Shown here piece after piece: positions 1 to 21,146 of a DNA stretch of 64,000 nucleotides. The stretch covers positions 2,912,001 through 2,976,000 of the forward strand of contig OX638340.1 in the NCBI GenBank assembly GCA_951812955.1. Direction: 5' to 3'. The translations under genes and the position numbers were made by a program. Each line of letters starts with the position of its first letter. Within the stretch, counting starts at the first letter, position 1. The notes under the pieces were generated by a model. That model was given only the letters and a program-made list of their open reading frames with translations, ran no database searches and was not told the DNA's origin. The stretch is from an uncultured Gemmatimonadota bacterium (GTDB taxonomy: Bacteria; JAAXHH01).

Positions 1-96
1 ATGTCACCTCGCGACCTTTCCCGGAGATGACGCTGGGCTTCTCAGCGATCTTCTAGCTACTCCCTTCGTCCACATGACTATCTGAATCTAAAGCAA

Positions 97-1548
97 ATGG
101 ATCACCATATGAACAGAGCGGCCTCGGCGCTGATTATCGCCGGCGGCGCGGGCGTGCGCCTTCAAACGGTAACCGGCCAGGTTCCCAAACCCTTGATGAA
201 GCTTTGCGGCGTGCCACTGATCAAGCGGATCATTTTGACAGCGGCCAGGGCCGGCATTTCGCGTTTCGTGATCGTAACGGGGTACCAGGCGGACCTCTTT
301 CACGAGGTCCTTTCGGACGATCCCGGCCTGGACGGCTGCCGGATCGAGTGGGTGCATAACGAGCGGTGGCACCTGCCCAACGGGGTTTCCGCCCTGGCCG
401 CCCGTTCCCGCCTGGCGGAACCGTTCGCGCTGCTCATGGCGGATCACCTCTTCGAGCAAAGTACGTTGGAGCGTCTGCTCGAGGAACCGGTCGCCGATGG
501 GGAATGTCTGCTCGCCGTCGACCGGAAAATCGATAGCGTGTACGACCTGGACGACGCCACCAAGGTCGAGGTGCGCGGGGACGAAGTTGTTCGCATCGAT
601 AAAGCGCTGCAGGAGTTCAATGCGGTAGACACGGGCATGTTCCTTTGTACGCCGGCACTGTTCGATGCCCTCGATGCCGTGGACGGACCGGAGGGGTGCG
701 CGTTGAGCGACGGCGTCCGGGCGCTGGCGGAAGACGGGAGGATACACGCCTTCGACGTCGGCGATGGATTCTGGCAGGACGTGGATACGCCCGAAATGCT
801 GGCGCACGGCGAAAAGAACCTCCTGGAGCGCCTAGTAAAGCCCACGGATGGCTGGATCGCCCGGTACTTGAACCGGCCGGTTTCGACCCGTCTCAGCCGA
901 TGGCTGGTCCGGACGCCGATCACCCCCAACATGGTGACCCTGGTCACCTTCCTGACCGGCCTGGCCGGAGCGTGGTTCGTGATGGGCGGCACGTACTGGA
1001 CGGTACTTCTTGGCGCCTTTCTTTTCCAGGTTTCGTCCATCCTCGATGGATGCGACGGGGAGGTGGCGGTCCTGACCTTCCGCGAGTCGAAATACGGTTC
1101 ATGGCTCGACACGATCACGGACAACCTGACCTACCTGGCGTTTTTCTCCGCCGTTGTCTGGGCCTATGCGGGCGGTTCCGACGTAACGGCAATCCGGTAC
1201 CTCGGCCTGGTATCCGTCGCCGTGGTGACCGCGTCGATTCTCGCGATGTACTACTACCTGATGCAGACCGGGGGAAGCGGAAGTCTCGTAAGGTTCAACC
1301 GCGCCTTCGAAAGACACGCCGTCGGGCGGCGCCGCAACCTCTCCGCCAGGCTGCTCAATCTGTTTCGGATGATGTGCAAAAGGGATTTCTTTACCTTGTT
1401 GTTGCTGGTTTTTGCCGCAATCGGACTCCTGAACTGGATGTTCTGGACCGTAACGGCCGGCGGCCTGGCCATGGGTCTGGCCATATTCATTTCGACGGGG
1501 CGGCTGTTGGCGCGGGACCGGGCGGTTGAGCAGATGGAGCGCTCATGA
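97..1548 (+). CDS. Bifunctional-type nucleotidyltransferase + CDP-alcohol phosphatidyltransferase (IPCT/DIPPS-like architecture)
   Basis: N-terminus ALIIAGGAGVRLQ...KPL resembles sugar/alcohol-phosphate nucleotidyltransferases. Hydrophobic C-terminal half carries the CDP-alcohol phosphotransferase motif DGCDGEVAV...G...G...D. The start may be ATG 109 (MNRAAS). The stop overlaps the next ATG (ATGA at 1545). Confidence 0.6.
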   Translation: MDHHMNRAASALIIAGGAGVRLQTVTGQVPKPLMKLCGVPLIKRIILTAARAGISRFVIVTGYQADLFHEVLSDDPGLDGCRIEWVHNERWHLPNGVSALAARSRLAEPFALLMADHLFEQSTLERLLEEPVADGECLLAVDRKIDSVYDLDDATKVEVRGDEVVRIDKALQEFNAVDTGMFLCTPALFDALDAVDGPEGCALSDGVRALAEDGRIHAFDVGDGFWQDVDTPEMLAHGEKNLLERLVKPTDGWIARYLNRPVSTRLSRWLVRTPITPNMVTLVTFLTGLAGAWFVMGGTYWTVLLGAFLFQVSSILDGCDGEVAVLTFRESKYGSWLDTITDNLTYLAFFSAVVWAYAGGSDVTAIRYLGLVSVAVVTASILAMYYYLMQTGGSGSLVRFNRAFERHAVGRRRNLSARLLNLFRMMCKRDFFTLLLLVFAAIGLLNWMFWTVTAGGLAMGLAIFISTGRLLARDRAVEQMERS

Positions 1549-2318
1549 GCGGATTACTGTACCATGTACGGGGACTTTTTACCCTCCGGATCAGGAAGGA
1601 TCTCAACTTCCGCAGGGTCCAGGAAACGGTCCCGGCGCTGCGCTGGCTGAAGCCGCGCAGGGGCGAGCGGATTCTCGATATAGGCTGCGGAGAAGGGACC
1701 TATGATTACCGGGTCGCCATGCGAGGCGCCGAGGTATTCGGTTTAGATTTGAACCGGCACCAATTGCGGCGTGCCGCGTCCTATCACAAGACCCCTTCGA
1801 CGGGATTCTTCTGTGCCGATGCGGGCGCGTTCCCCGTTCGCTCGGGACAGTTCGACACGGTCATGAGCCTGTGCGTCTTCGAGCACCTGCCGGACGACCG
1901 ACAGACGCTGAGGGAGATGTGGCGCGTATTGCGGCCCGGGGGACGCATCCTGTTGACGCTGGACAGTCTGAGCCTCGGGGGGATCGGCGAGGCGTGGCGC
2001 GACGAGCACCGGGAACGTCACAGCGTCCTTCAATTCTATTCGCATCCGTCGGTCGGCTCGTTGCTGGAGGCGTGTGGGTTCAGACTGATAAGACACCGCT
2101 ACCTGCTTCGTTCGAAGCTGGACCTGGCGCTGATCCGGTTGAGCTATGCTACCGAGCGCATGCACGCGATCCCGGCGGCGCTGGTCCGATTGGGGCTGGT
2201 ATCGATCGGCCGGGCAGTGTCTGCGGTTTTTAACCTGTTCACGAAAAACCACGGGGGATGGACGCTGTTGATCGAAGCAGACAGGAAGACCCCCCGTCCG
2301 GCGAATTCCCCACCATGA
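1545..2318 (+). CDS. Class I SAM-dependent methyltransferase
   Basis: ILDIGCGEGTY glycine-rich SAM-binding motif followed by acidic residue and VMSLCVFEH. The start overlaps the upstream stop. Confidence 0.6.
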   Translation: MSGLLYHVRGLFTLRIRKDLNFRRVQETVPALRWLKPRRGERILDIGCGEGTYDYRVAMRGAEVFGLDLNRHQLRRAASYHKTPSTGFFCADAGAFPVRSGQFDTVMSLCVFEHLPDDRQTLREMWRVLRPGGRILLTLDSLSLGGIGEAWRDEHRERHSVLQFYSHPSVGSLLEACGFRLIRHRYLLRSKLDLALIRLSYATERMHAIPAALVRLGLVSIGRAVSAVFNLFTKNHGGWTLLIEADRKTPRPANSPP

Positions 2319-3868
2319 AGCGTACCCTTGAGCAAACGGTTCCGGACCGGTCCGACACCGACGCATCGGCGATCGCCCGGGGCGCGGCCGTCAATTTCAT
2401 CGGAACGGTGGCGCGGCTTACCAAGTCCGTGTCGTTCATCGTCCTTACGCGGCTGTTCGGCGCCGAGATTTTCGGCCTGTACATGCTCGGATGGACCATC
2501 GTGGATCTCGTGGGAAAGGTGGCCCAGTTCTCGTTGGACAAGGGCTTGATCAATTTCATCCCGCGTATGCGCGAGGACGGGAAGAAGGACGCCATCCACC
2601 GAATCATCGCGCAGGCCCTGGGCGTGGGCCTGCTGCTGAGCGTTGGGGTCGGCGCCGCGCTATATGTCGGCGCGCCCGCGCTGGCCGAAGGGCTGCTCGA
2701 AAAGCCACGGCTCACCGGCATGCTGCGGTTGTTGGCGATCGGACTGCCGCTAATCGCCCTGACCCACATCATTTTGGGCGTCACCCGGGCTCACAAAGTC
2801 ATGAAGTACGACGCCATGGTCCGGGGCGCGGTCGAGCCGCTGGTGCTATTCGGGGCGGCCTGCGCCTTGTTCTACTGGGGCTGGCGCACCTACGGCATCG
2901 CCGCGGCCCACCTGGCCGCGCTGACCGGCGGCCTGCTGTTCGCCGTTTACGTGTTCACCAGGTTCTATTCCTGGCGTGCCTGTCTCGTCCACCTGCGCGA
3001 ACTGCGTTTCGTCACTCCGCTGACCCGATTCTCGCTGCCGGTAATGGGCTATGAACTGGTCTACATGGCCATGATACGTCTTGACGTGCTCATGGTCGGC
3101 TACTTCCTGCCGGCGGCGCAGGTGGGCATCTACGTGATCGCGGTCGAAATCGCCTTGCTGACCAAGAAGGTCCGCCAGTGGTTCGACCCGATTTTCAGTC
3201 CCATCGTCGCCGAACTGAATCACCGCAACGACCTGCCGCGGCTGGAGCGCAACCTCAGGCTGGTCACCCGGTGGGTCCTGACCATCGGCGTGGGGTTCCT
3301 CTGCGTCATAGCACTGATCGGCAATGAATTGCTGGGGCTGTTCGGTCCGGCATTCGTCACCGGGTTCATGGCGATGGTCGTCCTGGCCATGAGCCAGGTC
3401 GTATATGCCGCCATGGGTTCTGGCGATACCGTGCTCATCATGTCGGGCCGGCCCTATCTGAATCTCATCAACACGGTCGTGGTCGTAGCAGTGAATTTCG
3501 CCCTGAACCTGTGGCTGATACCATCCCTGGGCATCCTGGGCGCCGCCCTGGGAACGCTGGTATCCTTCGGCCTGCTGACACTAACGCGCCTGGTCGAGGT
3601 ATACCACCTGTTCCGGATCCATCCCCTGGACTGGCGCATTTTGAAGCCCTGCGCCGCAGCGGTCGTCGCCTTCGCATGCGCGTACATGGCGGGGGCCTAC
3701 GCGCCTGATGCCCCGTGGTTGCGCATGGCCGCGCTGCCTCTGATTTTCCTGGCCCCCTATCTCGGTGTGCTGTTCCTGATGGGTTTGGAAGAGGATGACC
3801 GGATCGTGCTCCGGCGCCTGCGGGGGCGGTGGGCACGAAGACGTGGGCACCGAGCTTCAGCGCCATGA
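2315..3868 (+). CDS. MOP-superfamily polysaccharide/oligosaccharide flippase (Wzx-like)
   Basis: About 14 predicted TM helices with the typical Wzx/polysaccharide-biosynthesis-protein layout. ATG 2315 (MKRTLEQ) overlaps the methyltransferase stop (ATGA). The track ORF starts earlier at 2258. Confidence 0.55.
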   Translation: MKRTLEQTVPDRSDTDASAIARGAAVNFIGTVARLTKSVSFIVLTRLFGAEIFGLYMLGWTIVDLVGKVAQFSLDKGLINFIPRMREDGKKDAIHRIIAQALGVGLLLSVGVGAALYVGAPALAEGLLEKPRLTGMLRLLAIGLPLIALTHIILGVTRAHKVMKYDAMVRGAVEPLVLFGAACALFYWGWRTYGIAAAHLAALTGGLLFAVYVFTRFYSWRACLVHLRELRFVTPLTRFSLPVMGYELVYMAMIRLDVLMVGYFLPAAQVGIYVIAVEIALLTKKVRQWFDPIFSPIVAELNHRNDLPRLERNLRLVTRWVLTIGVGFLCVIALIGNELLGLFGPAFVTGFMAMVVLAMSQVVYAAMGSGDTVLIMSGRPYLNLINTVVVVAVNFALNLWLIPSLGILGAALGTLVSFGLLTLTRLVEVYHLFRIHPLDWRILKPCAAAVVAFACAYMAGAYAPDAPWLRMAALPLIFLAPYLGVLFLMGLEEDDRIVLRRLRGRWARRRGHRASAP

Positions 3869-3940
3869 CGTTAGTGGTCCGGCGCCTGCGGGGCCTGTGC
3901 GGCCCGCCGCCTCTACCCGGTAAGAGGCCAAGCGCAAGCC

Positions 3941-5284
3941 GTGGGATGGAGGGGAGCGCGTACTTGGGACATCTGTCGACGGGGAGACTTGGTTATTTTG
4001 AATTACAGCGTGGTATTGTTCGCCGATACGGATGACATCACAGCCGGCGCCGGTCGATCGGTTTACGGCATTTCTCTGTTGGAACGGCACCTTCGGGTCT
4101 TTGCTTCCCTGGGGGCCCGGCGGGTAACCGTGGTCGGACCTGCACCCGGCCGGGGTTCGAAGGTCCGAGTCGACGGATTCGACGAACGCTGGTTCGCTGA
4201 GCTGCGCGCCGTCGACTGCGTGGGGGCCGAAGAAAGCCCTGCCCGCTGGCTGCCCGGGAAGGACGAAGTGGCCCTGGTGCTGGACGCCCACCACCTGTAT
4301 GACCCGCGTGTCCTGCGGGCCATGGTCGAAGGCGGCCCGAACCGTAAAGCCGCGGACTCGGCAGTCAGGGAATCCTGCAGGCTGCTGGTGGCCGACGCAG
4401 ACCTGCTCGCAAGCCTCACAGCGTGCTGGAACGGCTCCGAATCACTATGGTCATCGCTGGACTCGGCGCGGGAATCGACCTGCCCGGTATTCGATCTCCG
4501 CGAAATGGACCCCTATATCGTGGATCTGCGCCGAAGCCTGCCCCCCTGGTGGGTGGTCCTGGGTTCGGACCGGAAAGCGCGCCGGGCGGAGGCGCTTCTG
4601 ATCAATGCCGCACAGAAGGGAACGCTGGATTTTCCGGCGGAATTCATACATCCACCCCTGGAGAACCTGCTTACAAAGTGGATCTCGGCCGGAACCGTGA
4701 CGCCTAACCAGGTAACCACCCTCACCATATTGCTGGCCTTCCTGACCACCGGCCTGCTGGCCGTGGGGCAATCGGGCCCGGGTTACACGGCCGCCGGACT
4801 GATCATCGCCTTCATCGTCGGAGTACTGGACGGGGTCGACGGCAAGTTGGCCCGTGTTACGGTGCGATGCACGCGGTTCGGGGACCGATTTGAACACATC
4901 CTGGACGTGATCTGGGAGCTGACCTGGTACTGGGCCCTGGGGTGGATGCTCGGCGGCAGTGGCGATGTGGCGGGGCCTTTCGTGCTCGCTTCGGTAATCA
5001 CGCTCTTTTATCTGCTTGACAAGACGGCCACGGGGATGTTCAAGTCACGGCAGGGAATCGAACTGTTTGACTACGAGCCCATGGATCGCTTTTTTCGCCG
5101 TATCGGCGCCCGGCGCAACACGAACGTCCTGCTGCTGCTGGGTGGTACGGCGGCAGGTATGCTGGAGGAAGCGTTTACATGCGTGGCCATCTGGACGGTG
5201 ATTACGGCGGCGTTTCACTGGACGCGGGCGATCTGGGTGCTGTCGAAGCCGACATCGGCCGGCGATGTGAAACGGCTTCCTTAA
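3941..5284 (+). CDS. CDP-alcohol phosphatidyltransferase with degenerate N-terminal nucleotidyltransferase-like domain
   Basis: C-terminal motif DGVDGKLARVTVRCTRFGDRFEHILD matches D-x2-DG-x2-AR-x8-G-x3-G-x3-D. The N-terminal 220 aa align with the fold of the 97..1548 N-domain but lack GxGxRL. The start is GTG or TTG and uncertain. Confidence 0.5.
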   Translation: MGWRGARTWDICRRGDLVILNYSVVLFADTDDITAGAGRSVYGISLLERHLRVFASLGARRVTVVGPAPGRGSKVRVDGFDERWFAELRAVDCVGAEESPARWLPGKDEVALVLDAHHLYDPRVLRAMVEGGPNRKAADSAVRESCRLLVADADLLASLTACWNGSESLWSSLDSARESTCPVFDLREMDPYIVDLRRSLPPWWVVLGSDRKARRAEALLINAAQKGTLDFPAEFIHPPLENLLTKWISAGTVTPNQVTTLTILLAFLTTGLLAVGQSGPGYTAAGLIIAFIVGVLDGVDGKLARVTVRCTRFGDRFEHILDVIWELTWYWALGWMLGGSGDVAGPFVLASVITLFYLLDKTATGMFKSRQGIELFDYEPMDRFFRRIGARRNTNVLLLLGGTAAGMLEEAFTCVAIWTVITAAFHWTRAIWVLSKPTSAGDVKRLP

Positions 5285-5301
5285 CGCCAGCCACGATTTC
5301 T

Positions 5302-5337
5302 CCCGGGCATGGGCCGGCCCATGCCCGTTAATTTGGA
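5302..5337 (+). terminator. Intrinsic terminator-like GC palindrome after 3941..5284
   Basis: cccgggcatgggcc/ggcccatgcccg perfect palindrome followed by ttaatttgg. Confidence 0.45.
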
Positions 5338-5363
5338 TCAAAAAGTGGAATTGTGCGTCTAAT

Positions 5364-6803
5364 ATGCTTGATAATGAGCGAGTCGGCCATGGCTGTGCGT
5401 CGACGCTTGTGCTAAGCGGAGGCATCGTGTTTCGTTTCCTGGTCCACATCCTGGCGGTATCTCTGATCACGGGGCCGGCGGTCGCACAGGGATCGGACCG
5501 TCCCGTACAGGCCGTCCAATCCGTCCGGATGACGCTGGAGCAGTGCGTGGACAGGGCGTTGACGGTCAGTCCTGATATCGAGCAGGCGGCCCTTGCCGTC
5601 GAAGGCCTGGAAGCCAGGTTGAGCGAAGCGAAATTTGCGGGCATCGCACCCCGGTTGCAGTGGACCAACATCTTCGGTCCGGCGCCCGGCATAAAAGGCG
5701 ATACAGAACGGGTCGAGACCATCCGGAGCGACCTGTCCGACCTGGGCGTTTTTTCCCGCACGCAGATCGAATTGGTCCAGCCGCTGTATACCTTCGGGAA
5801 GCTCAGCAATGCGAAGAAGGCGGCCGGATACGGTCTCGAGGCGGGCGAGGCCGCCGTGGAATCCAGGAAGCACGACGTGGCCTTCCAGGTTAAGAAACTG
5901 TTCTACGGACTCGTGTTGGCCCGTGAACTCAGGGAAATCATTCTGGAAAGCGAAGAAAGCGTACGTGAAGCCCGGGAGCGCGTCAACGAGATGATCGAGG
6001 AGGATTCGGAAGATGTCGGCCAGAACGACCTGTTGAAAATCGATGTCTTCGAGTATGAAGTGCAACAGAGCCGGGCGCGGGCCGAGAAGTCGATCGAAAT
6101 AGGGAAGGCGGCGCTGAAATCGGTGCTTGAAATCGATCGCTCCAGCGATTTCGATATCGTCGACACGACCGCGGAACCCAGTACGGCAGACCTCGACGGA
6201 CTGGAATTCTACATCGAACAGGCGAAGAACCGGCGGTACGACATCCGGCAGCTCAGGGCCGGCGTGCTGGCCCGCCGCGCGCTGCTGAAGGTAGCCCGGA
6301 GCGACTACTACCCCCAGATCGCCCTTGCGGGGTCCATCCAGTGGGGTATCGCGCCCCACCGGCCGGAACTCGACAATCCGTTCCTCAGGGACGAGTTCAA
6401 TTTCCTGCGGGGGGGCGCGGTGATTACCTTGCGGCAGAACTTCAATTTCGGCCTGACCCGCGCGAAGTACCAGGCCAGGAAAGTGGAGCTGGAAGCGCTG
6501 GTGACCAGGGAATCACAGGCGATGAACGCGATCGAACTGCAGGTGGAATCGACCTACCGGGACGTGATCGAGGCCCGTACCAACGTCGTCAACAGCGACC
6601 GGGCGCTTCGCTCCGCCAGGGCATGGCTGACATCGGCAAAGCTGGGCTTCGACATCACGGGAGACAGTTCGGAATTGCTGGACGCCTTCACCGCGCACGC
6701 GAAAATGCAACATGCACACCGGCAGTCGCTTTTCCAGTACCGGGTTTCGCTGGCCGAACTCGATCACGTAACCGGTAACGGGATTTCAAATGTGCGGCGC
6801 TGA
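5364..6803 (+). CDS. TolC-family outer membrane efflux protein (outer membrane factor)
   Basis: Two-repeat coiled-coil/beta architecture with typical OMF sequence (LTLEQCVDRAL...; the ATG 5364 frame reads MTLEQCV only if the internal M is used). Probable true start is GTG 5430 (MFRFLVHILAVSLITGPAVAQ signal peptide) preceded by GGAGG. Confidence 0.6.
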   Translation: MLDNERVGHGCASTLVLSGGIVFRFLVHILAVSLITGPAVAQGSDRPVQAVQSVRMTLEQCVDRALTVSPDIEQAALAVEGLEARLSEAKFAGIAPRLQWTNIFGPAPGIKGDTERVETIRSDLSDLGVFSRTQIELVQPLYTFGKLSNAKKAAGYGLEAGEAAVESRKHDVAFQVKKLFYGLVLARELREIILESEESVREARERVNEMIEEDSEDVGQNDLLKIDVFEYEVQQSRARAEKSIEIGKAALKSVLEIDRSSDFDIVDTTAEPSTADLDGLEFYIEQAKNRRYDIRQLRAGVLARRALLKVARSDYYPQIALAGSIQWGIAPHRPELDNPFLRDEFNFLRGGAVITLRQNFNFGLTRAKYQARKVELEALVTRESQAMNAIELQVESTYRDVIEARTNVVNSDRALRSARAWLTSAKLGFDITGDSSELLDAFTAHAKMQHAHRQSLFQYRVSLAELDHVTGNGISNVRR

Positions 6804-6824
6804 CACACGGAACGGAGGATGGTC

Positions 6825-7655
6825 ATGAAGAATCGACGTGCGGGGGCGGGCAGGACGCTCAGTCTGGTGGCTGGCACCGTCCTGTTGCTCATTGCCACGT
6901 TCATCGATCCGTCTTCCGTCCTTCGCACGGACTCAGCGGATAAAGGAACGCCGCCCCGATTTTCCGTGCTGGGGATCGACTCTTTTGTTCCGGCAGCCGC
7001 GCGGGCGGATCATCCTCAACGCCGCGATGATCGTCGTGCGTCCGTCCTCATCGATGGCTTCGACAGTTCGGCCCCGGGCAGCTTCCCCCTGACCTGGAAG
7101 GCCTGGCGGGGAGACGATGACCTGGCTCGAAAAACGTATACGATCCGGGAGGAAAACGGAAACCGGTATCTCCACGCCGCCGACGACGGCTCATCCATCA
7201 TCATTCGCAAGCAGCTTAGCGAATGGGATGCGAACGAATACCCGGTGCTGTCATGGCGCTGGAGGGCGAAGGTCCTGCCCGAAGACGGAGATGAACGCAT
7301 CGGTTCCAGGAACGACAGTTCAGTGGCCGTGTACGTGGTCCTGGATCAGAACTTCATCGGCGTGCCCAAAACCCTGAAGTACGTCTGGAGTACCACCCTG
7401 CCGGTCGGCACCCATCACCGCCGCGACGGTATTGGCCGTCCCCACGTGATCGTGCTCGAAAGCGGTACGGAGAAGCTCGGGGAATGGGTCAAGGAGTCGG
7501 TCGACGTGTATGCGGACTATGTCCGGATCTTCGGGAAAAAGCCGCCCCGGAAAGCCGTAGGGATCGGTATTCTTACGGATGGCAACGCGACGGGAACGGA
7601 CTCGAAGGGGGATTACGACGACTTCATGGTTCATCGCCGGAACACCGGGTCCTGA
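6825..7655 (+). CDS. Secreted DUF3047-like protein
   Basis: Signal peptide MKNRRAGAGRTLSLVAGTVLLLIA. The central WKAWRGDDD...LSWRWRAKVLP block resembles DUF3047, a family assignment from memory. GGAGG RBS 6 nt upstream of ATG 6825. Confidence 0.35.
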   Translation: MKNRRAGAGRTLSLVAGTVLLLIATFIDPSSVLRTDSADKGTPPRFSVLGIDSFVPAAARADHPQRRDDRRASVLIDGFDSSAPGSFPLTWKAWRGDDDLARKTYTIREENGNRYLHAADDGSSIIIRKQLSEWDANEYPVLSWRWRAKVLPEDGDERIGSRNDSSVAVYVVLDQNFIGVPKTLKYVWSTTLPVGTHHRRDGIGRPHVIVLESGTEKLGEWVKESVDVYADYVRIFGKKPPRKAVGIGILTDGNATGTDSKGDYDDFMVHRRNTGS

Positions 7656-7690
7656 CCCGTCAATTCCGGCCGGAAGGTAGGAGGAAGAAA

Positions 7691-8290
7691 ATGCATGCTA
7701 TTTGCCGCGCACTCCGCCCCTTGGGACCACTTGTCGCCTGGGCGGCGGTGTCGTTGATCGCTTTCGGGAGTAACGCGCAGGAATACTCGCCCATCGAGAC
7801 CCTGAAACAGCGGGACGCCGCGTTACTCGGCCTGGATGGAGCCACCACCGAAGCGGCACGGGACAGTCTCGTGCGCCGGGCCGTCGTCGAGGGGTTCGAT
7901 TTCGTACGACACAGCCGTATCTCGCTCGGCAGGCACTGGCGGGAGAGGACGGACGCGGAACAAGAAGAATTCGTTTCGGTCCTGCGTAAGTGGACGGAAA
8001 ACCGGGCCCTCGACAAGTTGCGCAAGCGGTCGGACAGGACGACTTATGACGGAGAGGAGACCCGGGGCAGCAGGTCGCTGGTGAGAACCACGGTATGGTA
8101 CAAGGGTACCAAAACACTCGTCGACTACAAGATGGAGTTGCAGGAAGGGCACTGGCTCATTTACGACATGGTCATCGACGGGGCGAGCGTCGCGCTGGCC
8201 AACCGGGACGCATTCTACAAGAAGATCAGCAGGACCTCCTACGACGAATTGCTCGATACCCTACTCGCAAAAACCCTTGAAATAGAGTAG
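7691..8290 (+). CDS. MlaC/Ttg2D-family periplasmic lipid-binding protein
   Basis: Signal peptide followed by the C-terminal block HWLIYDMVIDGASVALANRDAFYKKI...LLDTLLAK typical of MlaC/toluene-tolerance Ttg2D. AGGAGG 6 nt upstream of ATG 7691. Confidence 0.5.
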   Translation: MHAICRALRPLGPLVAWAAVSLIAFGSNAQEYSPIETLKQRDAALLGLDGATTEAARDSLVRRAVVEGFDFVRHSRISLGRHWRERTDAEQEEFVSVLRKWTENRALDKLRKRSDRTTYDGEETRGSRSLVRTTVWYKGTKTLVDYKMELQEGHWLIYDMVIDGASVALANRDAFYKKISRTSYDELLDTLLAKTLEIE

Positions 8291-8370
8291 TATTTCTTGT
8301 ATATTTCCGGGTCTGTGAGATATACTCGTTTCAAGCGGTATATTCATGTCCTAAGTTTTTAGGAGACAGA

Positions 8371-9813
8371 ATGGCGAAGACGGTATACGACCGGTGTATC
8401 TTTTTCCTCGTCGACGGCGCCCGCGAAGACGTCATGCGGGAAATGACCGAGGCGGGCGAACTGCCTGCCCTGCGGCGCTACGTGCTGGACAGGGGAGACT
8501 ACCGAAAGGCGGTGACTTCGTTTCCGTCCACGACCGGTCCGGCCCATGTGCCCTTTCTGACCGGTTGTACGCCCGGTTCGTGCAATCTCCCCGGAATCCG
8601 CTGGTTCGACCGGTCCCAGCCCAATGGTCTCACCCATTTCCGCCAGGCGCGCAGTTACGTGGGTCCGGGAGGCCTGTATATCGACCAGGACCTCAAGGAT
8701 GAAGTCCACACCATCTTCGAGTACTTCGAGCGCCCGGCGGGGGTCTTCAGTTTTGTGAACAGGGGATTGGGCATATTCGAAAACCGGACGCTGCTGACCA
8801 GGGGCTGGTACTGGCTATACGCCCATTACTCCGGCCAGTGGCAGGCCGTGGACGACGCGGCCTGGCGGTACATCGACCGGGCCGTTGACCAGGGCGCCGA
8901 TTTCCTGTCGGTCGTATTCCCCGCGGTGGACGAATACTCGCATTACACCGATCCATTTTCGGACGCCACGTTGAACGCGTACCGGGAATTCGACCGGGGG
9001 CTCGGCAGGTTGGCGGAGCGGCTTCAACGGCAGGACAGACTGGACAGTACGCTTTTCGTGATCTCCAGCGATCATGGCCTGACCTCTACGCACACGCACT
9101 TCGAACTTTGGTCGTTTTTTGACGAATTGGGATTCAACACGCTGTATTATCCCCGGATCCTGCGCAACGGATGCGACGCGGCAACTATGGTCTCGGGCAA
9201 CGGCATGGCGCATATCTACCTCAAGAAAGGCGACTCCTGGGAAGAAAGGCCTTCCTACGAGGAGATCCGCACGCTGGGGGAAACGGACCCGATCGAAGCC
9301 CTGCTGGGGCAGGAGGCGATCGACCTTGTGGCGGCGGTCCAGGATGACTCGGTCATCGTCTGCGGGCGCCGGGGGATCAGTGAAATTAGGGAGACGCCCG
9401 AAGGCATCGCGTACCGGGTTATTGAGGGCCAGGATCCGTTCGGCTATGGAGGCATCCCGGCTGAAGCGTCCGATGAGCAATTGCTCTCCGCCACGTTCGA
9501 CACGGACTATCCCGACGCGCCTTACCAATTGCTGCGTGTCCTCGGTTCTCCGCGGTCGGGCGATTTGATCGTCAGTGCGCGAAAAGGCTACGATCTGAGA
9601 TACCGGTACGAGCATCCTGAGCACAAGTCGACCCATGGTTCACTGCATCGCGACCATATGCACGTTCCCTTGATGATGAATACGGAGATTGCGGCGGACC
9701 ACGTGCGCACCGTGGACCTCTTCCCCGCCATGCTGAACCTGACGGGGCGTTTGGTCGAAGGAACTATTGACGGCAGAGATTCTGTCACCGCCGCTTCGCG
9801 TGCGGTGGCGTAG
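8371..9813 (+). CDS. Alkaline-phosphatase-superfamily phosphodiesterase (type I phosphodiesterase/nucleotide pyrophosphatase-like)
   Basis: FFLVDGAREDV, FPSTTGPAHVPFLTG and ISSDHGLT metal-ligand motifs of the NPP/AP superfamily. AGGAGA RBS upstream. Confidence 0.6.
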   Translation: MAKTVYDRCIFFLVDGAREDVMREMTEAGELPALRRYVLDRGDYRKAVTSFPSTTGPAHVPFLTGCTPGSCNLPGIRWFDRSQPNGLTHFRQARSYVGPGGLYIDQDLKDEVHTIFEYFERPAGVFSFVNRGLGIFENRTLLTRGWYWLYAHYSGQWQAVDDAAWRYIDRAVDQGADFLSVVFPAVDEYSHYTDPFSDATLNAYREFDRGLGRLAERLQRQDRLDSTLFVISSDHGLTSTHTHFELWSFFDELGFNTLYYPRILRNGCDAATMVSGNGMAHIYLKKGDSWEERPSYEEIRTLGETDPIEALLGQEAIDLVAAVQDDSVIVCGRRGISEIRETPEGIAYRVIEGQDPFGYGGIPAEASDEQLLSATFDTDYPDAPYQLLRVLGSPRSGDLIVSARKGYDLRYRYEHPEHKSTHGSLHRDHMHVPLMMNTEIAADHVRTVDLFPAMLNLTGRLVEGTIDGRDSVTAASRAVA

Positions 9814-9822
9814 GAGTAATCC

Positions 9823-10914
9823 ATGTCCGAGCAGGTCCAGATTGCCCCGGCGCCGGAACCTGTCCCGCCGTCTCCCGCGCTGCCCGTACTGCAACCGGAC
9901 TCGGGCTATCTCGGGTACGACCGGGCGCTGTTGCGGCCCATGTCCCTCGGCACTAAGCTCCGAGCCTTGTTCAAGTACCTCTGGGTACGATTGAAGGGCG
10001 GACCGATGGCGGTGAACATGGAGGTGACCTATCTGTGCAACGCCACCTGCGATTTCTGTGATTACTGGAAGACGAAACGTTCAGGCAAGCTGGGCGATTA
10101 CGACTACATGGAGGCGCTCAGGAAGCTGAACCCCCTGACGGTCACGCTGACCGGCGGGGAACCCATGATCAACAAGCGACTGCCCGAGGCGGTCAGACGC
10201 ATCAAGGATGGCCTGGGATTCGTTTATATCGGCATGGTCACCCACGGATCTCTGCTGACCGTAGAAAAGGCCATGGCCCTGTGGGATGCCGGCGTGGACC
10301 ACATTTCGATCTCGTTGAACTATATCGGCCGCGAACATGACGAGGAACGGGGTATCGCGGGTTTGTACGAGCATATCTCCACGCTCGTTCCCCAGCTGAC
10401 GGCCCGAGGGGTCAACGTGATCTTCAACACGGTGATCATGCGTGAGAACCTGGACCACGTCGTACCCATCGCGCACCTGGCGCGTTCTATGGGCGCGAAG
10501 GTTTCCTACAGTTGCTACAGCGACTACAAGAATGGGAACGAAACCCACCTTGTGGATCCCGGTCACGAGGAGCAGTTGGAATCCGTGATCGAGGATCTGA
10601 TCTACCAGAAATCCCGATTGGGAAACATCGTCAATTCCGCCTGGTACTTGCGCCGGATCCCCGATTACTTCCAGGATGCGCTTCCAAGGTCCTGCACGGC
10701 AGCGGGCAAGTGGCTGGTGCAACTGACTCCCGACGGCAACGTAAAACCCTGTGCGGAACTGCCCGTAATGTCCGGGTATGCCGATTTCAAGCGGGTTTCA
10801 ACGAAGATCGACTGCAACCGGTGCTGGTACAGTTGCCGGGGTGAGACCGAATCTTCGTTGAAGCTTGTAAGGGTGCTGGAAGGCCTGGGCAGGGCCTGGC
10901 GCAGTAGCGCTTAA
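9823..10914 (+). CDS. Radical SAM enzyme with C-terminal Cys-rich (SPASM/twitch-like) region
   Basis: CNATCDFCDYW CxxxCxxC motif, TLTGGEPM SAM-binding motif. C-terminal C...CNRCWYSCRGE cluster. Pro/Ala-rich 60-aa N-terminal extension. Confidence 0.7.
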   Translation: MSEQVQIAPAPEPVPPSPALPVLQPDSGYLGYDRALLRPMSLGTKLRALFKYLWVRLKGGPMAVNMEVTYLCNATCDFCDYWKTKRSGKLGDYDYMEALRKLNPLTVTLTGGEPMINKRLPEAVRRIKDGLGFVYIGMVTHGSLLTVEKAMALWDAGVDHISISLNYIGREHDEERGIAGLYEHISTLVPQLTARGVNVIFNTVIMRENLDHVVPIAHLARSMGAKVSYSCYSDYKNGNETHLVDPGHEEQLESVIEDLIYQKSRLGNIVNSAWYLRRIPDYFQDALPRSCTAAGKWLVQLTPDGNVKPCAELPVMSGYADFKRVSTKIDCNRCWYSCRGETESSLKLVRVLEGLGRAWRSSA

Positions 10915-13900
10915 ACTACTACCGGCGCCAGTTCCCGGGCGAGGATCTTCCCGGTATGGGACAACAGGGACGCTGCGATATCCTCGGGCGTACCCGCGGC
11001 AACCACGTGACCGCCCCGGTCACCGCCTTCCGGACCTAGATCGACGATCCAGTCGGCCGTCTTGATGACGTCCAGGTTGTGTTCGATGACGAGCACGGTG
11101 TTCCCCTTGTCCACCAGCCTGTTGAGGACGTTCAGCAACTTGCGGATGTCGTCGAAGTGCAGCCCGGTGGTCGGCTCGTCCAGCAGGTAGACGGTCTTGC
11201 CGGTACCCGGCCGCGAGAGCTCCTTCGCCAGCTTGACGCGTTGCGCCTCGCCTCCCGAGAGCGTAATGGCCGACTGGCCGAGCTTGATGTAGTCGAGTCC
11301 CACGTCGTAAAGCGTCTGCAACATACGCCGGATGCGGGGCACGTTCTCGAAGTGCTCCAGGGCTTCGGCCACGGTCATCTCCAGCGTATCCGCGATCGTC
11401 TTACCCTTGTAGGTCACTTCCAGCGTCTCCTTCATGTAGCGCTTGCCGTCGCACACTTCGCAGGTCATCCACACGTCCGCCAGGAAATGCATCTCGATCT
11501 TGCGCACGCCGAGTCCCTGGCAGGCCTCGCACCGTCCAGCGGGCACGTTGAAGCTGAACCGTCGGGGTTCGTAGCCCCGCATCCGAGCCTCCACGGTCCG
11601 GGAGAAGAGCGACCGGATCGGCGCGAAGAGCCCGACGTAGGTGGATGGATCCGACCTGGGGGAATGGCCGATCGGGGTCTGGTCGATGTTTATGACCTTG
11701 TCCACGAACCGCAACCCCTTGATTTCATCGTGGGGTCCAGGGTTTACCTGGGCGCGGTGCAGGGTGGAGGCCAGCACAGGATGAAGGATGTCGTTGACGA
11801 GCGAGCTCTTTCCCGAACCGGACACCCCTGTGACGCAGATGAAAACGCCAAGGGGCAACGTCACGTCGATGTTCTTCAGGTTGTTCTGGCGCGCCCCGAG
11901 GATGCTAAGCCTGTTCCGGCCCGGCTTGCGGCGGTCCCGCGGCACTTCGATGCGAAGCCTGTTTCCCAGGTAACTGCCGGTGAGTGAAGTCTCGAGTTCC
12001 CTGAGGGCGGCGGGGGTGCCTTCGCCCACGATCCGGCCTCCGAACACCCCCGCTCCCGGTCCGAAATCCACCAGGTTGTCGGCATGCTCCAGCGTGTCGC
12101 GGTCGTGTTCGACCATGATCAGCGTATTGCCGAGATCGCGCAGGTTCTCCAGGGCATGGATCAGCCTGAGGTTGTCCCGCGGGTGAAGCCCGATCGTGGG
12201 TTCGTCCAGCACGTAGAGCACGCCGGTCAGCCCCGATCCGATCTGGCTGGCCAAACGGATTCGCTGTGCTTCGCCGCCCGATAGCGAGGGCGCCCGGCGG
12301 TCGAGGGTCAGGTATTCCAGCCCCACGTCGAGGAGGAAGCGCATGCGGTTTCTGATTTCCTTCATCACCTCGCCCACGACTTCCCGCTGCGGCGCCGAGA
12401 GTTTCAGGCCTTCGATGAAGTCCAGGGCACGGTCGGTGGACATGGCGCATAGCGCCGCAATGGACACGCCGTCGATCAGCACGGAAAGGCTTTCGGATCG
12501 GAGCCGTCCGCCTTCACATGCCGAGCAGGGCGTCGGCTGCAGGAGGCGGGCCAGTTCGGGAAAGCGGTTCGCGTAGCGGGCGACCAGTTCCACGGCCGGG
12601 AAGATGCCCCGGAACTGGAAGGACAGGCCGGGGACCCGTTGGTCCTCTATCCACCGGTCGCTGCCATAGAGCAACACCTGGAGCTGTTCTGCCGACAGCG
12701 CTTCAACGGGCGTCTCCAGGTTGAATCCCTGGGTGGACGCCACCAGTTCAAGCAGGTCGAGTATGGACCGTTCGCCCACCGTGCCTTCCTCCCAGATCGC
12801 AGCCGCGGCGTCCCTTATGGATTTCGAACGATCGGGAATCAACAGGTCGAGATCGATGCCGGGCTGGGTTCCGAGTCCCTCGCAATCGGGGCACATGCCC
12901 GCCCGGTGGTTGAATGAGAAGCTCTGGGGCGAGAGTTCGTCGTAACTGACTCCGCAGGCGGGACACGAATAGTACCGGCTGAAGCGGATATCGTGTGGAC
13001 CGGCGGAATCCGGTTCCTGCACCTCGGCGATCAGCAATCCCCCCGATAGGTCCAATGCCGTCTCCACCGAATCGGCCAGGCGCTGTCGGACGTCGCCCTG
13101 CATGACGATCCGGTCTACCACCACGCACAGTTCGTGGCGCCGCCGCCGGTCGATCTGAATGTCCTCTTCGAGCCGCCGCAACACGCCATCGATGCGTACC
13201 CGGATGAACCCGTTCCGGCGGGCCCTGTCCAGAAGGGCATCGTATCCCTCGGCGCCTTCGGGTTCCAGCGGCGCATGCAGCGTGGCGCGGGTCTGCTCCG
13301 GGAGGGTCATGATGCGGTCCACGATCTGGCTGGGCGTCTGCGCGCCGATGGGAACGCGGCAGGCGGGGCAGTGGGGCGCGCCGACCAGGGCGTAGAGTGC
13401 GCGCAGGTACTCGTAGATCTCCGTAATGGTGCCCACCGTGGAGCGTGGGTTCCGGCCCGGCGCCTTCTGTTCGATGGATATGGCCGGGGAAAGGCCGACG
13501 ATATGGTCCACCTTCGGCTTCTGCATCTGCTGGAGGAACTGGCGCGCGTAGGCTGAAAGGGATTCCACGTACCGTCTCTGGCCTTCCGCGTAGATCGTAT
13601 CGAGGGCCAGGGAAGTTTTCCCGGAGCCGGAAACGCCCGTGAACACGGTCATCCGGTCCCGGGGGACAGCCACGGTGAGGTCACGCAGGTTGTGCTCCCG
13701 CGCGCCGCGCACGGTGATCTCCCGTATGTGGCCGTCTCCTGCTGCGTCCTGCCTGACCGGTTTAGGAGCCACGGGGAGCGCCCGGGGCCGAAGCGCCTTC
13801 TCCAGGATCCGGCCCGTGGACGATCCGTCGACGCCCGCCACGGTCTCCGGCGTTCCCTCCGCGATGACGCGGCCGCCCGCGTCGCCGCCCTCCGGGCCCA

Positions 13901-16613: not shown

Positions 16614-16844
16614 GGGAATCAAGCCGGATTCAGCGGGTCGTTGGATCAGGGCGAACGGCGGCGGCACAGCAAGCGAAAGATGCTATACGGGTGTTTAGAA
16701 ATCAAGGTATTTTCAAGGTGGACCGTGAATGGCGGAAAAGACGCTTGTTCTATGCCGTTACCGGAGTTAACGTGGTGTCGGCCGGTCCATCAGAATGCGG
16801 CGCGCCGGCCCGCCGCAGCCGATGTCGGAAACGGGACGATCATC

Positions 16845-17570
16845 ATGTCGAACGACTGGTATATCGAATACTTCGACGAAGACTACTACCATTTCGACCA
16901 CCACGAGGATACGGATCTCGAAGTGGACGGACTCGCGCGCCTGTTGGACCGCCGCGAGAGGAAAAGGATACTGGACATTGGCTGCGGCTACGGACGGGTC
17001 AGCACACCGTTGCGGAAACGCGGCTATCGGGTCGTGGGCTACGACCTGTCCCCCGCCCTGCTGAAACGGGCCCGTGAAGGGGATCCCGGGGGAATCTGGG
17101 TCAGGGGAGACATGCGTGAACTGCCCTTTGCCGGAGCATTCGACACGGCCATCAGCCTGTTTAATGCCTTCGGGTACTTCGAAGAAGAAGAAGAAAACTT
17201 CAGGGTCCTGAAGTCTGTTTCGGAGGCATTGCACCCCGGCGGGCTGTTCGTATGCCAACTCGTCAACCGGGACTACCTTGTCCGCCGGTTCGCCGCCCAG
17301 GAAGTCCACCGCCGGGGAGACCTGGTCATACTGGAAGAGCGCGATTTCGATGCGATCGCGAACAGGGTGCTAACCAGGACGACCGTGATCAGTGGCGCGG
17401 ACAGACGGGAGTACGCGTCTTCCATCCGTGTCTACACCGTGACCGAGCTGGACCTGCTCCTGGCCGCTGCCGGCATGACGATACGGGAAGTCCACGGCGG
17501 ACTCGATTTCAGACCCTACGACTGGGATACGAACCAGTTGGTCATCATCGCCGAAAGAACCGATCGGTAG
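16845..17570 (+). CDS. Class I SAM-dependent methyltransferase
   Basis: ILDIGCGYGRVSTPL and VGYDLSP motifs. Divergent from uvrA. The upstream part of the track ORF (16572-) lacks homology. Confidence 0.6.
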   Translation: MSNDWYIEYFDEDYYHFDHHEDTDLEVDGLARLLDRRERKRILDIGCGYGRVSTPLRKRGYRVVGYDLSPALLKRAREGDPGGIWVRGDMRELPFAGAFDTAISLFNAFGYFEEEEENFRVLKSVSEALHPGGLFVCQLVNRDYLVRRFAAQEVHRRGDLVILEERDFDAIANRVLTRTTVISGADRREYASSIRVYTVTELDLLLAAAGMTIREVHGGLDFRPYDWDTNQLVIIAERTDR

Positions 17571-17680
17571 AGGATCCCGGGTGGCTCCGGTTTCCAATAA
17601 GCTTGACAAGACCCTGGTCCAATCTTAGGATTCAATGTCATTTCATTCTGTCTGAATACGGGAAAAACAAAGGATTCTAC

Positions 17681-18724
17681 ATGGCATCGGATCTGTTGCG
17701 CGTTGGCGTGATCGGATTGGGGTTCGGTCAATATCACATCCGTGGTTACCAGGCCTGTAACGGTGTGACGGTTGAGACGATCTGCAGCCGGACAACGGAA
17801 ACCGCGCAACGCGTGGCGAAGGACTACGGGATAGCCGAGACCCAGACGGATTACCGGGCGGTACTGGATCGCAAGGATATCGATGCCGTCAGTATCTGCA
17901 CGCCGGTGAACCTGCACAAGCAGATGGTCATCGAGGCCCTGGAATCCGGTAAACACGTCCTGTGCGAGAAACCGCTCGGGTTGAATACCGCGGAAGCCGG
18001 GGAAATGCTTGAAAGCGCGCGCCGGAGCGGCATGGTGCACATGACCAACTTCGGCTGGCGGTTCAATGGACCGGCCTTTCGCATGAAATCCCTGCTGGAC
18101 GAGGGTTACATCGGCAAGACCTACCATCTCAATGCCCGGTACATGATGGGTTACCGGGCAAGCCCCCGGAAGGAGCACAGCTGGCGTGAGCGGCGCATGG
18201 CGGCGGGACTCGGCGCCATGGGCGATCTCGGTGTACACCTGATCGATATGACACGGTGGTGGATCGGAGAATTCGAACGGGTATGTTCGCTGATGCACAC
18301 GCTCATCCCGGAACGTCCCGCGCCGGACTCATCCACCATGCGGGAGTCTGAACTGGAGGACGCCTGCGCTTTTATCTCACAGATGCAGGACGGGGTCCAG
18401 GCCGTTTTCCACGTGAGCCGTTGCGCCCTGAGCACGGACTACATCCACATAGATATCCACGGCAGCAATGGAGCCCTGCAGTTCCAGTTCCTGCGTGACA
18501 CCATGCAGGCCAGTCTGAAAGGCGGACAGGGCCTGCGAGGAAACATCCAGCCCCTGTCCGTGCCCGCCCGGAAGGGCGCGTTGTCTCCACAGCGACACTT
18601 TATCGACGCGATACGCTCCGGTGGGGAAGCCAATCCGAGTTTTCACGAAGGCTTCTGCGTGCAGCAGGTCGCTGACGCCATCACCGCTTCCGAGGAGAAA
18701 CAGGCATGGGTATCCCTCTTATGA
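17681..18724 (+). CDS. Gfo/Idh/MocA-family NAD(P)-dependent oxidoreductase
   Basis: LRVGVIGLGFGQYHI Rossmann N-terminus and EKPL motif. Confidence 0.7.
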   Translation: MASDLLRVGVIGLGFGQYHIRGYQACNGVTVETICSRTTETAQRVAKDYGIAETQTDYRAVLDRKDIDAVSICTPVNLHKQMVIEALESGKHVLCEKPLGLNTAEAGEMLESARRSGMVHMTNFGWRFNGPAFRMKSLLDEGYIGKTYHLNARYMMGYRASPRKEHSWRERRMAAGLGAMGDLGVHLIDMTRWWIGEFERVCSLMHTLIPERPAPDSSTMRESELEDACAFISQMQDGVQAVFHVSRCALSTDYIHIDIHGSNGALQFQFLRDTMQASLKGGQGLRGNIQPLSVPARKGALSPQRHFIDAIRSGGEANPSFHEGFCVQQVADAITASEEKQAWVSLL

Positions 18725-19626: not shown

Positions 19627-19636
19627 TGGAGCCTTC

Positions 19637-19981: not shown

Positions 19982-20051
19982 TGCCATGGATATGGATCCT
20001 TCCGTGTCTTGAAGCGCACGGAGGTCTATGGTCCGTGAAAGGTGGGATGTC

Positions 20052-21140: not shown

Positions 21141-21146
21141 GCGCCC

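Follow-up and report, generated by a model that had tools for sequence, protein, structure and literature searches.

To our knowledge, inositol lipids are rare in bacteria and only two routes to them are established, one through PIP synthase and one through BEPIS, the latter in a single organism. Homologues of BEPIS are reportedly present in Sphingobacteria and Alphaproteobacteria. Here we describe a gene cluster of an uncultured Gemmatimonadota bacterium that, in our judgement, rather probably encodes a Kennedy-type route in which a phospho-inositol head group is placed on a membrane lipid, flipped and delivered to the outer membrane. The cluster is located at the start of a 64,000-nt stretch of contig OX638340.1 (positions 2,912,001 to 2,976,000), referred to as the window, and all coordinates are given within it. 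It comprises nine genes, numbered g1 to g9 in 5' to 3' direction, all of which are encoded on the plus strand and together span positions 97-10914.

Annotation with Pfam and NCBIfam profiles identified g1 (97-1548, 483 aa) as a fusion of an IPCT-like cytidylyltransferase (NTP_transf_3/NTP_transferase) with a CDP-alcohol phosphotransferase (CDP-OH_P_transf). It is followed by g2 (1545-2318), a class I S-adenosylmethionine (SAM)-dependent methyltransferase (Methyltransf_11) with one predicted C-terminal hydrophobic segment, g3 (2315-3868), a multi-pass membrane flippase of the MOP superfamily (Polysacc_synt), and g4 (3998-5284), a paralogue of g1 with a non-catalytic cytidylyltransferase-like domain. 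The preliminary description of this DNA had seen two paralogous IPCT/DIPPS-like fusions flanking a methyltransferase and a flippase, and this assignment is borne out by the Pfam matches of g2 and g3 and by the comparison of g1 with g4. BLASTP aligns the C-terminal (membrane) halves of the two proteins with E = 2e-13, and the alignments of their families (A1 for g1, A2 for g4) match over their full length in hhalign with 99.9% probability (7-461 versus 19-420). The N-domains align as well, for example LLMADHLFE of g1 with LVLDAHHLYD of g4. By sequence, the two are true paralogues, well beyond chance. The locus had been delimited to 97-5284; its features lie at the places reported, but five more co-oriented and conserved genes extend it to 10914.

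The described system closest in its chemistry is that of Rhodothermus marinus, in which, according to Jorge, Borges and Santos (2015) as summarised in PMC4587543, CDP-inositol and dialkylether glycerol yield ether glycerophosphoinositol through BEPIS, encoded in a MIPS-IPCT-BEPIS operon (MIPS, inositol-phosphate synthase). By analogy, the same chemistry is proposed here: the head group and not the lipid would be activated with CTP, and a CDP-alcohol phosphotransferase would transfer it to a lipid alcohol. The coupling to IPCT is also found here, since g1 carries this domain in cis and g4-type relatives adjoin free-standing IPCT and MIPS genes; alphaproteobacterial BEPIS-type clusters contain a g4-like gene. 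In Rhodothermus, however, IPCT and transferase are separate genes next to MIPS, whereas the window has IPCT and a DIPPS-derived transferase in one protein, besides a dead-domain paralogue, and no linked MIPS. Genes for a methyltransferase, a MOP flippase, export proteins, a phosphodiesterase and a radical SAM enzyme are added relative to R. marinus, the BEPIS of which enters this comparison by its description and not by its sequence.

The IPCT/DIPPS of A. fulgidus (AF0263, PDB 4MND) and the MIPS-linked fusions of other archaea and bacteria that are of the type making the heat-protective compatible solute di-myo-inositol phosphate (DIP) share with g1 the two-domain architecture, the nucleotidyltransferase signature and the four aspartates of the transferase. 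But g1 belongs to a separate clade, and its acceptor half cannot be aligned meaningfully with theirs (11% identity). Where those enzymes have Arg directly after the fourth aspartate (D4+1), Asp at D4+4 and R432, g1 has Asn, Tyr and Phe, respectively. Moreover, g1 has a longer loop between transmembrane (TM) helices TM4 and TM5 with GSGSL and KRDFF motifs, and the signature Arg is not conserved. The A. fulgidus protein AF2299 (PDB 4O6M/4O6N/4Q7C) has the architecture of g4, including an N-domain without catalytic signature, and the whole-chain TM-score against the g4 model is 0.77-0.81. AF2299 does not process lipids and retains the D4+1 Arg (DRYSD), whereas g4 has Val at this position and Glu as D3, and the two are only 13-15% identical in the structural alignment. 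The PIP and archaetidylinositol-phosphate synthases (PgsA1, RsPIPS, AIPS) share the class I CDP-alcohol phosphotransferase fold and metal site and are the nearest lipid-processing relatives by profile. Their logic is the opposite, with CDP-diacylglycerol or CDP-archaeol as donor and inositol phosphate as acceptor, and they need the D4+1 Arg and further arginines. In contrast, the D4+1 Arg is missing from g1 and g4, which have an IPCT domain or rely on one.

Other systems resemble parts of the cluster. For Bacteroides vulgatus and Prevotella, a Kennedy-like CDP-inositol route to phosphatidylinositol or inositol sphingolipid has been predicted (Heaver et al. 2022; PMC9246714), and a flippase-type gene resembling lysyl-phosphatidylglycerol synthase lies nearby, which parallels the LPG_synthase_TM genes and fusions described below. 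That function is predicted, and the genes are separate, small and clustered with MIPS in host-associated Bacteroidota, without an outer-membrane export module, methyltransferase or radical SAM gene. On the export side, g7 resembles HpnM, the MMPL proteins of related loci resemble HpnN and BstA, and the fused PF03706 domain found in some relatives is the flippase domain of MprF. Compared to the hopanoid (HpnN/HpnM) and sterol (BstABC) transporters, the window has no MMPL gene, but a TolC-like OEP protein and a DUF3047 protein as additional, uncharacterised partners. Finally, the ceramide diphosphoglycerate pathway of Caulobacter crescentus (CpgD/CpgA) uses an IPCT-like cytidylyltransferase to activate the head-group precursor of an anionic outer-membrane lipid (PMC12275187). 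It differs in its phosphoglycerate substrate, its free-standing nucleotidyltransferase and a transferase that is not known as a CDP-alcohol phosphotransferase.

We subsequently compared the cluster with related loci, 80 of which were taken from species-representative genomes (out of >590) and complemented by loci from other look-ups. Flanking open reading frames (ORFs) of 83 loci and the window start were clustered de novo with labels checked against Pfam, and a neighbour-joining tree of 85 sequences was interpreted only jointly with these gene-context data. The fusions split into three clades, which we call DIP type, lipid type (including g1) and dead-domain type (including g4). DIP-type proteins (435-460 aa) occur in ANME-1, Thermoplasmata, Nitrospirota, Planctomycetota, Zixibacteria and others. 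In 19 of the 42 DIP-type loci, MIPS is the gene immediately upstream, and the fusion adjoins an IMPase-family gene in 8 and a DUF4202/HD-like gene in 22; IMPase, DUF4202 and HAD partners are confined to this type. The lipid-type proteins are longer (470-540 aa), and their neighbours in 34 loci are OEP (27), MlaC (25), MMPL (21), LPG_synthase_TM (12) and DUF3047 (11, spanning four phyla), as well as GMC and GFO/IDH/MocA oxidoreductases, GT4, PlsB and radical SAM genes. None of the 34 lipid-type loci has MIPS as a neighbour (Fisher p = 1.4e-6 against the DIP type), and none has IMPase. In the DIP-type loci, the DUF4202/HD-like gene (189 aa) is located directly 3' of the fusion gene (L042, L044, L047 and 19 others), and in some proteins the domain is fused to the enzyme, while others carry HAD; P0401, P0405, P0477 and P0475 are among these fused proteins. 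Because DUF4202 adjoins or fuses to DIP-type enzymes, and HAD is fused in others, it is a candidate DIPP phosphatase where an IMPase-type neighbour is missing.

On the donor side, g1 closely follows IPCT. The protein consists of a cytidylyltransferase-like domain (residues ~10-245) and a membrane CDP-alcohol phosphotransferase domain (~250-483) with six TM helices. The NCBIfam model for the bifunctional IPCT/DIPPS (NF041135; EC 2.7.7.74 and 2.7.8.34) matches g1 end to end with 237.3 bits, below the equivalog cut-off of 580, and g4 with 50.8 bits. The best PDB matches of g1 are 4MND (residues 10-378, E = 4e-48), the T. maritima IPCT 4JD0 (3e-26) and the A. fulgidus IPCT 2XME (3e-22), while other nucleotidyltransferase classes follow from 7e-13 onward; the N-domain thus sides with bona fide IPCTs and not with a GlmU/RmlA-like class, the alternative considered beforehand. 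All IPCT-type motifs are complete (GxGxR...K, PNGxS, MxDH, DDxTKV, DTGxF, WxDVD). The NTP-binding signature GGAGVRL (residues 16-22, nt 142-162, containing G17, G19 and R21) is invariant in alignment A1 and in DIP-type enzymes; the active-site set further includes K31 (nt 187-189), N95, S98, D116, H117, D153, T155, D178, W226, D228 and D230. Here the mapping of T. maritima 'D112' to D116 is approximate, the numbering of the printed alignment being offset. Thus, the active-site residues are all present in g1, in agreement with the intact GGAGVRL and DGxDG motifs first noticed, the latter being DGCDGE at residues 317-322.

These data bear on the nature of the head group. Of the 48 N-domain columns with at least 90% conservation in the MIPS-linked DIP-type clade, the lipid-type clade keeps 42 with the same residue, and a single column shows a specificity-type difference. 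Free-standing nucleotidyltransferases adjoining MIPS have 35-36 of 41 signature columns in common with g1, compared to 23 of 41 for a nucleotidyltransferase from a chemically different cluster (L088), and about half of the signature residues differ in the sugar-1-phosphate nucleotidyltransferase 2GGO. Compared with the DIP type, g1 is 42% identical over the nucleotidyltransferase domain and 48% over the linker and TM1-3, the CDP site, which is thereby its best-conserved part, but only 11% over TM4-6, the acceptor side. The transferase motif of g1 (D317-G-C-D320-G-E-V-A-V325...G334-S-W-L-D338-T-I-T-D342; 1045-1122) contains the four metal-binding aspartates, which are invariant in the alignment. 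PF01066 is matched by g1 with 30.3 and by g4 with 38.4 bits (cut-off 22), and each has seven of the eight signature residues (D1xxD2G1xxAR...G2xxxD3xxxD4); for g4, the structural model confirms the fold.

The acceptor side is clearly different. The D4+1 residue is Arg in 100% of the DIP-type proteins, in AfDIPPS, in AF2299 and in the PIP synthases. In M. tuberculosis PgsA1 this residue (R94) is conserved in CDP-alcohol phosphotransferases using inositol phosphate, and the exchanges R94K and R94Q largely destroy activity (PMC6506517). In g1, D4+1 is Asn343 and D4+4 is Tyr346; Asn is found in 113 and Tyr in 110 of 118 proteins of the family. The corresponding D4+1 residue of g4 is Val, and Val, Asn or Leu in its family, but never Arg. 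In addition, the RDxR motif of the DIP type reads RDFF in the lipid type, with R432 replaced by Phe, and the C-terminal 'IRR' is absent. TM4-6, the least conserved region, form the acceptor pocket in solved CDP-alcohol phosphotransferases (PMC4634129). The sequence evidence indicates that g1 is not a DIP(P) synthase and uses an acceptor other than inositol phosphate. Together with the missing MIPS neighbours, the lipid-trafficking neighbours and the fusion partners described below, it strongly supports the earlier view that the product is probably not DIP itself.

Pfam recognises no domain in g4 besides CDP-OH_P_transf. Both the GxGxR...K signature and the DDATKV...VDTG segment are deleted or replaced, and equivalents of R21, K31 and D116 are absent, whereas the transferase motif (D-G-V-D-G-K-L-A-R...G-D-R-F-E-H-I-L-D; 4829-4906) is retained, as the preliminary description had stated for the second copy. 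The AlphaFold2 model of g4 has a pLDDT of 87.9, and its top Foldseek matches are the AF2299 structures 4O6M, 4Q7C and 4O6N, followed by IPCT-DIPPS. Even with members as distant as 29% identity included, 24 columns of the g4 family alignment are invariant, N-domain positions among them, so that the family is maintained by selection and not decaying. Without a working nucleotidyltransferase domain, g4 would therefore have to use CDP-inositol provided by g1.

Further evidence for a lipid product comes from fusion partners. A full-library profile search gave 2,733 representative clusters at E <= 1e-30, and the best 150 were examined for fusions. Thirteen lipid-type proteins among these 150 (~800 aa) carry a C-terminal LPG_synthase_TM domain, the flippase domain of MprF (PF03706), while long DIP-type proteins have fused DUF4202/HD-like or HAD phosphatase-type domains instead. 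These fusions fit a lipid and a solute, respectively, because a phosphatase is required to finish DIPP, and a flippase to complement a transferase of lipid head groups. MMPL proteins of related loci reach their highest scores with the exporters of hopanoids (HpnN) and sterols (BstA), and g7 with HpnM, all far below the family cut-offs.

Distant relatives of g4 are found in similar surroundings. Polymorphobacter sp. (Sphingomonadales) and one other genome each have a g4-like gene flanked by a small CDP-alcohol phosphotransferase gene (D4+1 = Tyr) on one side and by genes for MIPS and a free-standing IPCT on the other. In locus L087, a g4-like gene is accompanied by a serine-palmitoyltransferase-like gene (553 bits, cut-off 640), an SDR gene, MMPL and a MOP flippase, so that this may be a bacterial phospho-sphingolipid cluster; the region L087:1465-15133 also holds two radical SAM genes, an Asp/Arg hydroxylase and a second g4-like gene. 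A g4-like gene of locus L088 (838-14576) is found with LPG_synthase_TM, MMPL, another CDP-alcohol phosphotransferase, a nucleotidyltransferase, HAD, a class III aminotransferase and GFO/IDH/MocA, which points to a lipid whose head group is modified and may be an amino-cyclitol. Radical SAM and B12-radical SAM genes are also present in this region.

The arrangement of the window recurs in other genomes. The g1-g2-g3-g4 block is also present in the Latescibacterota metagenome-assembled genome (MAG) L010 and in L089 (63% identity), in both with a radical SAM-SPASM gene after g4; in L089, the contig continues past this gene with OEP-DUF3047-MlaC-phosphodiesterase genes as in the window. Orthologues of g2 were found only in loci that also have g3 and g4, orthologues of g3 in L001, L005-L010, L036 and L089, and g8 only in the Gemmatimonadota-type version of the cluster. 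In Nitrospira, Myxococcota and other MAGs, the gene immediately after the lipid-type fusion is an orthologue of g9 (36-43% identity). True orthologues are those of L026, L030, L031, L033 and L090, and g9-type genes sometimes occur without a linked fusion gene (L092). Radical SAM neighbours in KSB1 were considered as g9 orthologues but rejected, since they are MoaA-like and several kb away from the fusion and the single-linkage cluster containing them was heterogeneous. The smallest conserved module elsewhere consists of LPG_synthase_TM, the fusion gene and the radical SAM gene (L026, L029, L032, L090). A version with the order OEP-fusion-MlaC-MMPL is found in L002 (14829-18116) and 13 other Latescibacterota/Gemmatimonadota loci. 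It is followed by a 266-aa membrane protein without Pfam family, which has an internal repeat with 'GAFKDSPFEGF'-like motifs, and then by GMC and GFO/IDH/MocA oxidoreductases.

Taken together, these data are consistent with the following pathway. The N-domain of g1 would convert CTP and L-myo-inositol-1-phosphate to CDP-inositol, and its membrane domain would bind this CDP-alcohol at the conserved four-aspartate di-metal site and pass inositol phosphate on to an acceptor of another kind than inositol phosphate itself. The second transferase, g4, which shares the ancestry of g1, would be fed with CDP-inositol by g1. For these three steps the sequences themselves provide support. The acceptors may be lipid alcohols such as diacyl- or dialkyl-glycerol or ceramide, and g1 and g4 may serve different acceptors or form a heterodimer. 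From the gene content we infer that the product is methylated and flipped: g2 may methylate the head group or the lipid, and g3 may move the product to the periplasmic leaflet. From there, the MlaC-like g7, the DUF3047 protein g6 and the TolC-like g5 could carry it to the outer membrane, while the phosphodiesterase g8 and the radical SAM enzyme g9 might act in tailoring or turnover of the head group or lipid. The relatives of g8 and g9 in sequence and fold searches are generic (NPP for g8; PqqE, BlsE, SkfB and MoaA for g9) and do not fix a substrate.

Several observations weigh against this pathway. MOP flippases usually handle polyprenyl-diphosphate-linked glycans. Neither MIPS nor IMPase is encoded in the 64-kb window or within 10 kb of any lipid-type fusion. 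In the transferase domains, the signature Arg of g1 is replaced by Val and D3 of g4 by Glu, departures from a CDP-alcohol phosphotransferase signature described as 'absolutely conserved', so that activity is assumed; since these changes are family-wide and conserved, g1 and g4 are nevertheless probably active. The arginine equivalent to RsPIPS R153 (R429 in g1) is kept in all three clades. A loss of all phosphate-binding arginines in the acceptor half of g1 had been considered and was rejected when the RsPIPS alignment revealed this residue, and the acceptor argument is therefore confined to the D4+1 Arg, R432 and the C-terminal RR. Furthermore, the six TM helices of g1 do not include the extra helices of eukaryotic lipid-acceptor enzymes (PMC4634129), and the IPCT-like fold can activate other phospho-compounds, as does CpgD with phosphoglycerate (PMC12275187).

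The last point leads to an alternative that we regard as unlikely but worth weighing, namely that the lipid destination is the same but the head group is not inositol: it could be a modified cyclitol, glycerol phosphate, phosphoglycerate or an amino-alcohol phosphate, with g2 methylating it. Besides the CpgD precedent, the lack of MIPS in the window and in the flanks of the 34 lipid-type loci would be explained, and the closest matches of g2 among solved structures are phospho(methyl)ethanolamine N-methyltransferases (E = 8e-16, a generic match, with MitM also among its relatives). Related clusters contain GFO/IDH/MocA, GMC and aminotransferase genes able to remodel a cyclitol, and the L088 nucleotidyltransferase illustrates that the substrate signature of the family can change. 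In g1, however, this signature is nearly that of the MIPS-linked and MIPS-adjacent enzymes (35-39 of 41 columns for the latter), the CDP-alcohol site is the part best conserved, and g4-type relatives are directly linked to MIPS.

It is still less probable, and in our view rather remote, that the acceptor is a polyprenyl-phosphate-linked or glycan intermediate and the product an inositol-phosphate or polyol-phosphate surface polymer or capsule, flipped in a Wzx-like manner and leaving through the TolC-like protein. The characterised members of the Polysacc_synt/MOP family, to which g3 belongs, flip polyprenyl-diphosphate-linked units, GT4 glycosyltransferases lie beside some related loci, and inositol is present in a Bacteroides capsule (PMC9246714). 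But Pfam and NCBIfam profiles detected no initiating phosphoglycosyl transferase, glycosyltransferase, Wzy polymerase, Wzz chain-length regulator or ligase in the operon and most of the remaining window ORFs of at least about 250 aa, which places the locus outside the O-antigen setting that had been envisaged as an objection. In addition, the conserved partners are the lipid carriers MlaC and HpnN-like MMPL, and in many lineages the role of the flippase is taken by, or fused as, the MprF-type phospholipid flippase domain. That g1 is what its annotation says at face value, a bifunctional IPCT/DIPPS making DIP or a related solute, with g4 as an AF2299-like enzyme for a second solute, is highly improbable: its best NCBIfam and PDB matches are indeed IPCT/DIPPS, JGI labels some homologues CDP-L-myo-inositol myo-inositolphosphotransferase and g4 is structurally closest to AF2299, but the model score is far below its cut-off, the acceptor half with its arginines has diverged, MIPS, IMPase, DUF4202 and HAD partners are replaced by lipid-export neighbours and flippase-domain fusions, and the host belongs to a mesophile-type Gemmatimonadota MAG lineage and not to the (hyper)thermophiles.

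Inspection of the DNA letters revealed 4-nt ATGA overlaps between g1 and g2 (1545-1548) and between g2 and g3 (2315-2318), and the same overlaps are called in the 96%-identical 2.47-Mb contig L001. The listed ORF of g3 begins at 2258, but homologues align from residue 20, which corresponds to ATG 2315. Translational coupling, initially proposed for the whole block, therefore holds for genes 1-3 but not for g4, which is preceded by a gap of ~130 nt. The longest ORF of g4 starts with GTG 3941; its start is most likely TTG 3998, with GGGGAG 10 nt upstream, as judged by the length of homologues (424-428 aa) and by the disorder that the model shows for residues 1-18 of this long ORF. A GC-rich hairpin (5304-5327; 10-bp stem with eight G-C pairs, followed by a T-rich tail) is located 20 nt past the g4 stop on the plus strand and is a possible terminator or attenuator separating g1-g4 from the export genes. 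It is the strongest site of a promoter and terminator scan of positions 1-11200, in which the overall number of sites was not above shuffled expectation. Scans of the window for tRNA genes and Rfam families were empty.

The second part of the cluster begins with g5 (5364-6803), a TolC-like outer-membrane factor (OEP) with a signal peptide. It is followed by g6 (6819-7655), a DUF3047 protein that is probably exported because it has an N-terminal signal or anchor, and g7 (7691-8290), an MlaC/HpnM-like periplasmic lipid-binding protein with a signal peptide. The last two proteins are predicted to be cytoplasmic: g8 (8371-9813) is a phosphodiesterase of the alkaline-phosphatase superfamily (PF01663), and g9 (9823-10914) is a radical SAM enzyme that has, besides CX3CX2C, a cysteine motif for an auxiliary cluster in its C-terminal part. 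All nine genes recur in L001, with a BlaI/BlaR1-like pair upstream and a fused double UvrA downstream. The closest relatives of g1 (84-96% identical) are from Gemmatimonadota MAGs, and all organisms carrying the cluster are MAGs; exact-sequence lookups of g1 and of protein P0239 gave no match. The window opens with the 3' end of a BlaR1-like (Peptidase_M56) sensor gene (1-56, plus strand), assigned from Pfam and gene calls in L001 and L089 and from synteny in L004-L009. A pair of BlaI-like repressor and BlaR1-like M56 sensor-protease genes lies directly 5' of g1 in all Gemmatimonadota-type loci (L001:7674-9948, L089:7555-9890). The pair is a possible regulator and hints at envelope-stress-type control of the lipid operon, which does not imply that it belongs to the system.

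Some genes elsewhere in the window deserve mention. A 1206-aa fusion (53915-58767, plus strand) of a fatty-acyl reductase (NAD_binding_4 and Sterile), an AMP-binding acyl ligase and HAD-IB, followed by a Zn-alcohol dehydrogenase, looks like an enzyme of fatty-alcohol or ether-lipid type, and could matter should g1 or g4 act on an alkylglycerol, as BEPIS of Rhodothermus does. The regions 17252-21974, 41980-43011, 51760-52743 and 60590-61642 encode several GFO/IDH/MocA oxidoreductases and a TIM-barrel protein resembling xylose isomerase; their families include inositol dehydrogenases and inosose dehydratases/isomerases, but are too generic to link these genes to the operon. On the minus strand, a single ORF of 1918 aa (10911-16667) contains two complete tandem UvrA units (two UvrA_inter, two UvrA_DNA-bind and four ABC ATPase modules), and since the same 1918-aa gene is called in L001, it is not an assembly artefact of the window. 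Also on the minus strand, a 2147-aa protein (28797-35240) has seven serial Cache domains (sCache_2/dCache_2), Big_2 and a weak match to an autotransporter beta-domain; judged by these domains, it is an unusual giant surface protein of ligand-sensing modules.

BEPIS-like chemistry itself is not new. What appears to be new is a DIPPS-derived, IPCT-fused lineage in this role in several mostly uncultured phyla, the addition of a dead-domain paralogue, a methyltransferase and a MOP flippase in the Gemmatimonadota-type version, the consistent link to a TolC-like/MlaC/DUF3047/MMPL export set and radical SAM enzymes, and a rule of residues and fusion partners that separates the lipid type from true DIPP synthases. 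A literature search, with subscription journals outside its coverage, found no description of the lipid-type lineage or of this gene set, and nothing on DUF3047, Gemmatimonadota inositol lipids or BEPIS beyond the papers cited. The loci extend over Gemmatimonadota, Latescibacterota, Zixibacteria-like bacteria, KSB1, Nitrospirota, Myxococcota and other MAGs. We only tentatively suggest that the switch of the acceptor from inositol phosphate to a lipid defines an unrecognised broad system for outer-membrane phospho-inositol lipids, with its own flippases (MOP or MprF-type, sometimes fused), export by MlaC-like, DUF3047, TolC-like and HpnN-like MMPL proteins, and radical SAM and methyl tailoring.

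If this is true, the lipids in question, which may be ether-linked or sphingoid, might be among the sources of the 'phospho-hexose' intact polar lipids of soils and sediments, and they could serve as anionic lipids of the outer leaflet, analogous to the ceramide phosphoglycerate of Caulobacter. Enzymes now annotated as 'DIPP synthase' or 'NTP transferase domain protein' could be sorted by a simple rule: D4+1 Arg marks solute makers, with Asn, Val or Tyr otherwise, RDxR stands against RDFF, and a fused phosphatase against a fused flippase domain. Such sorting would remove a systematic error of annotation, which in studies of MAGs can be mistaken for evidence of thermophily or osmoadaptation. 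It would also make testable which environmental bacteria make phospho-inositol lipids, how these are transported to the outer membrane, and which roles DUF3047 proteins and radical SAM enzymes play in it.

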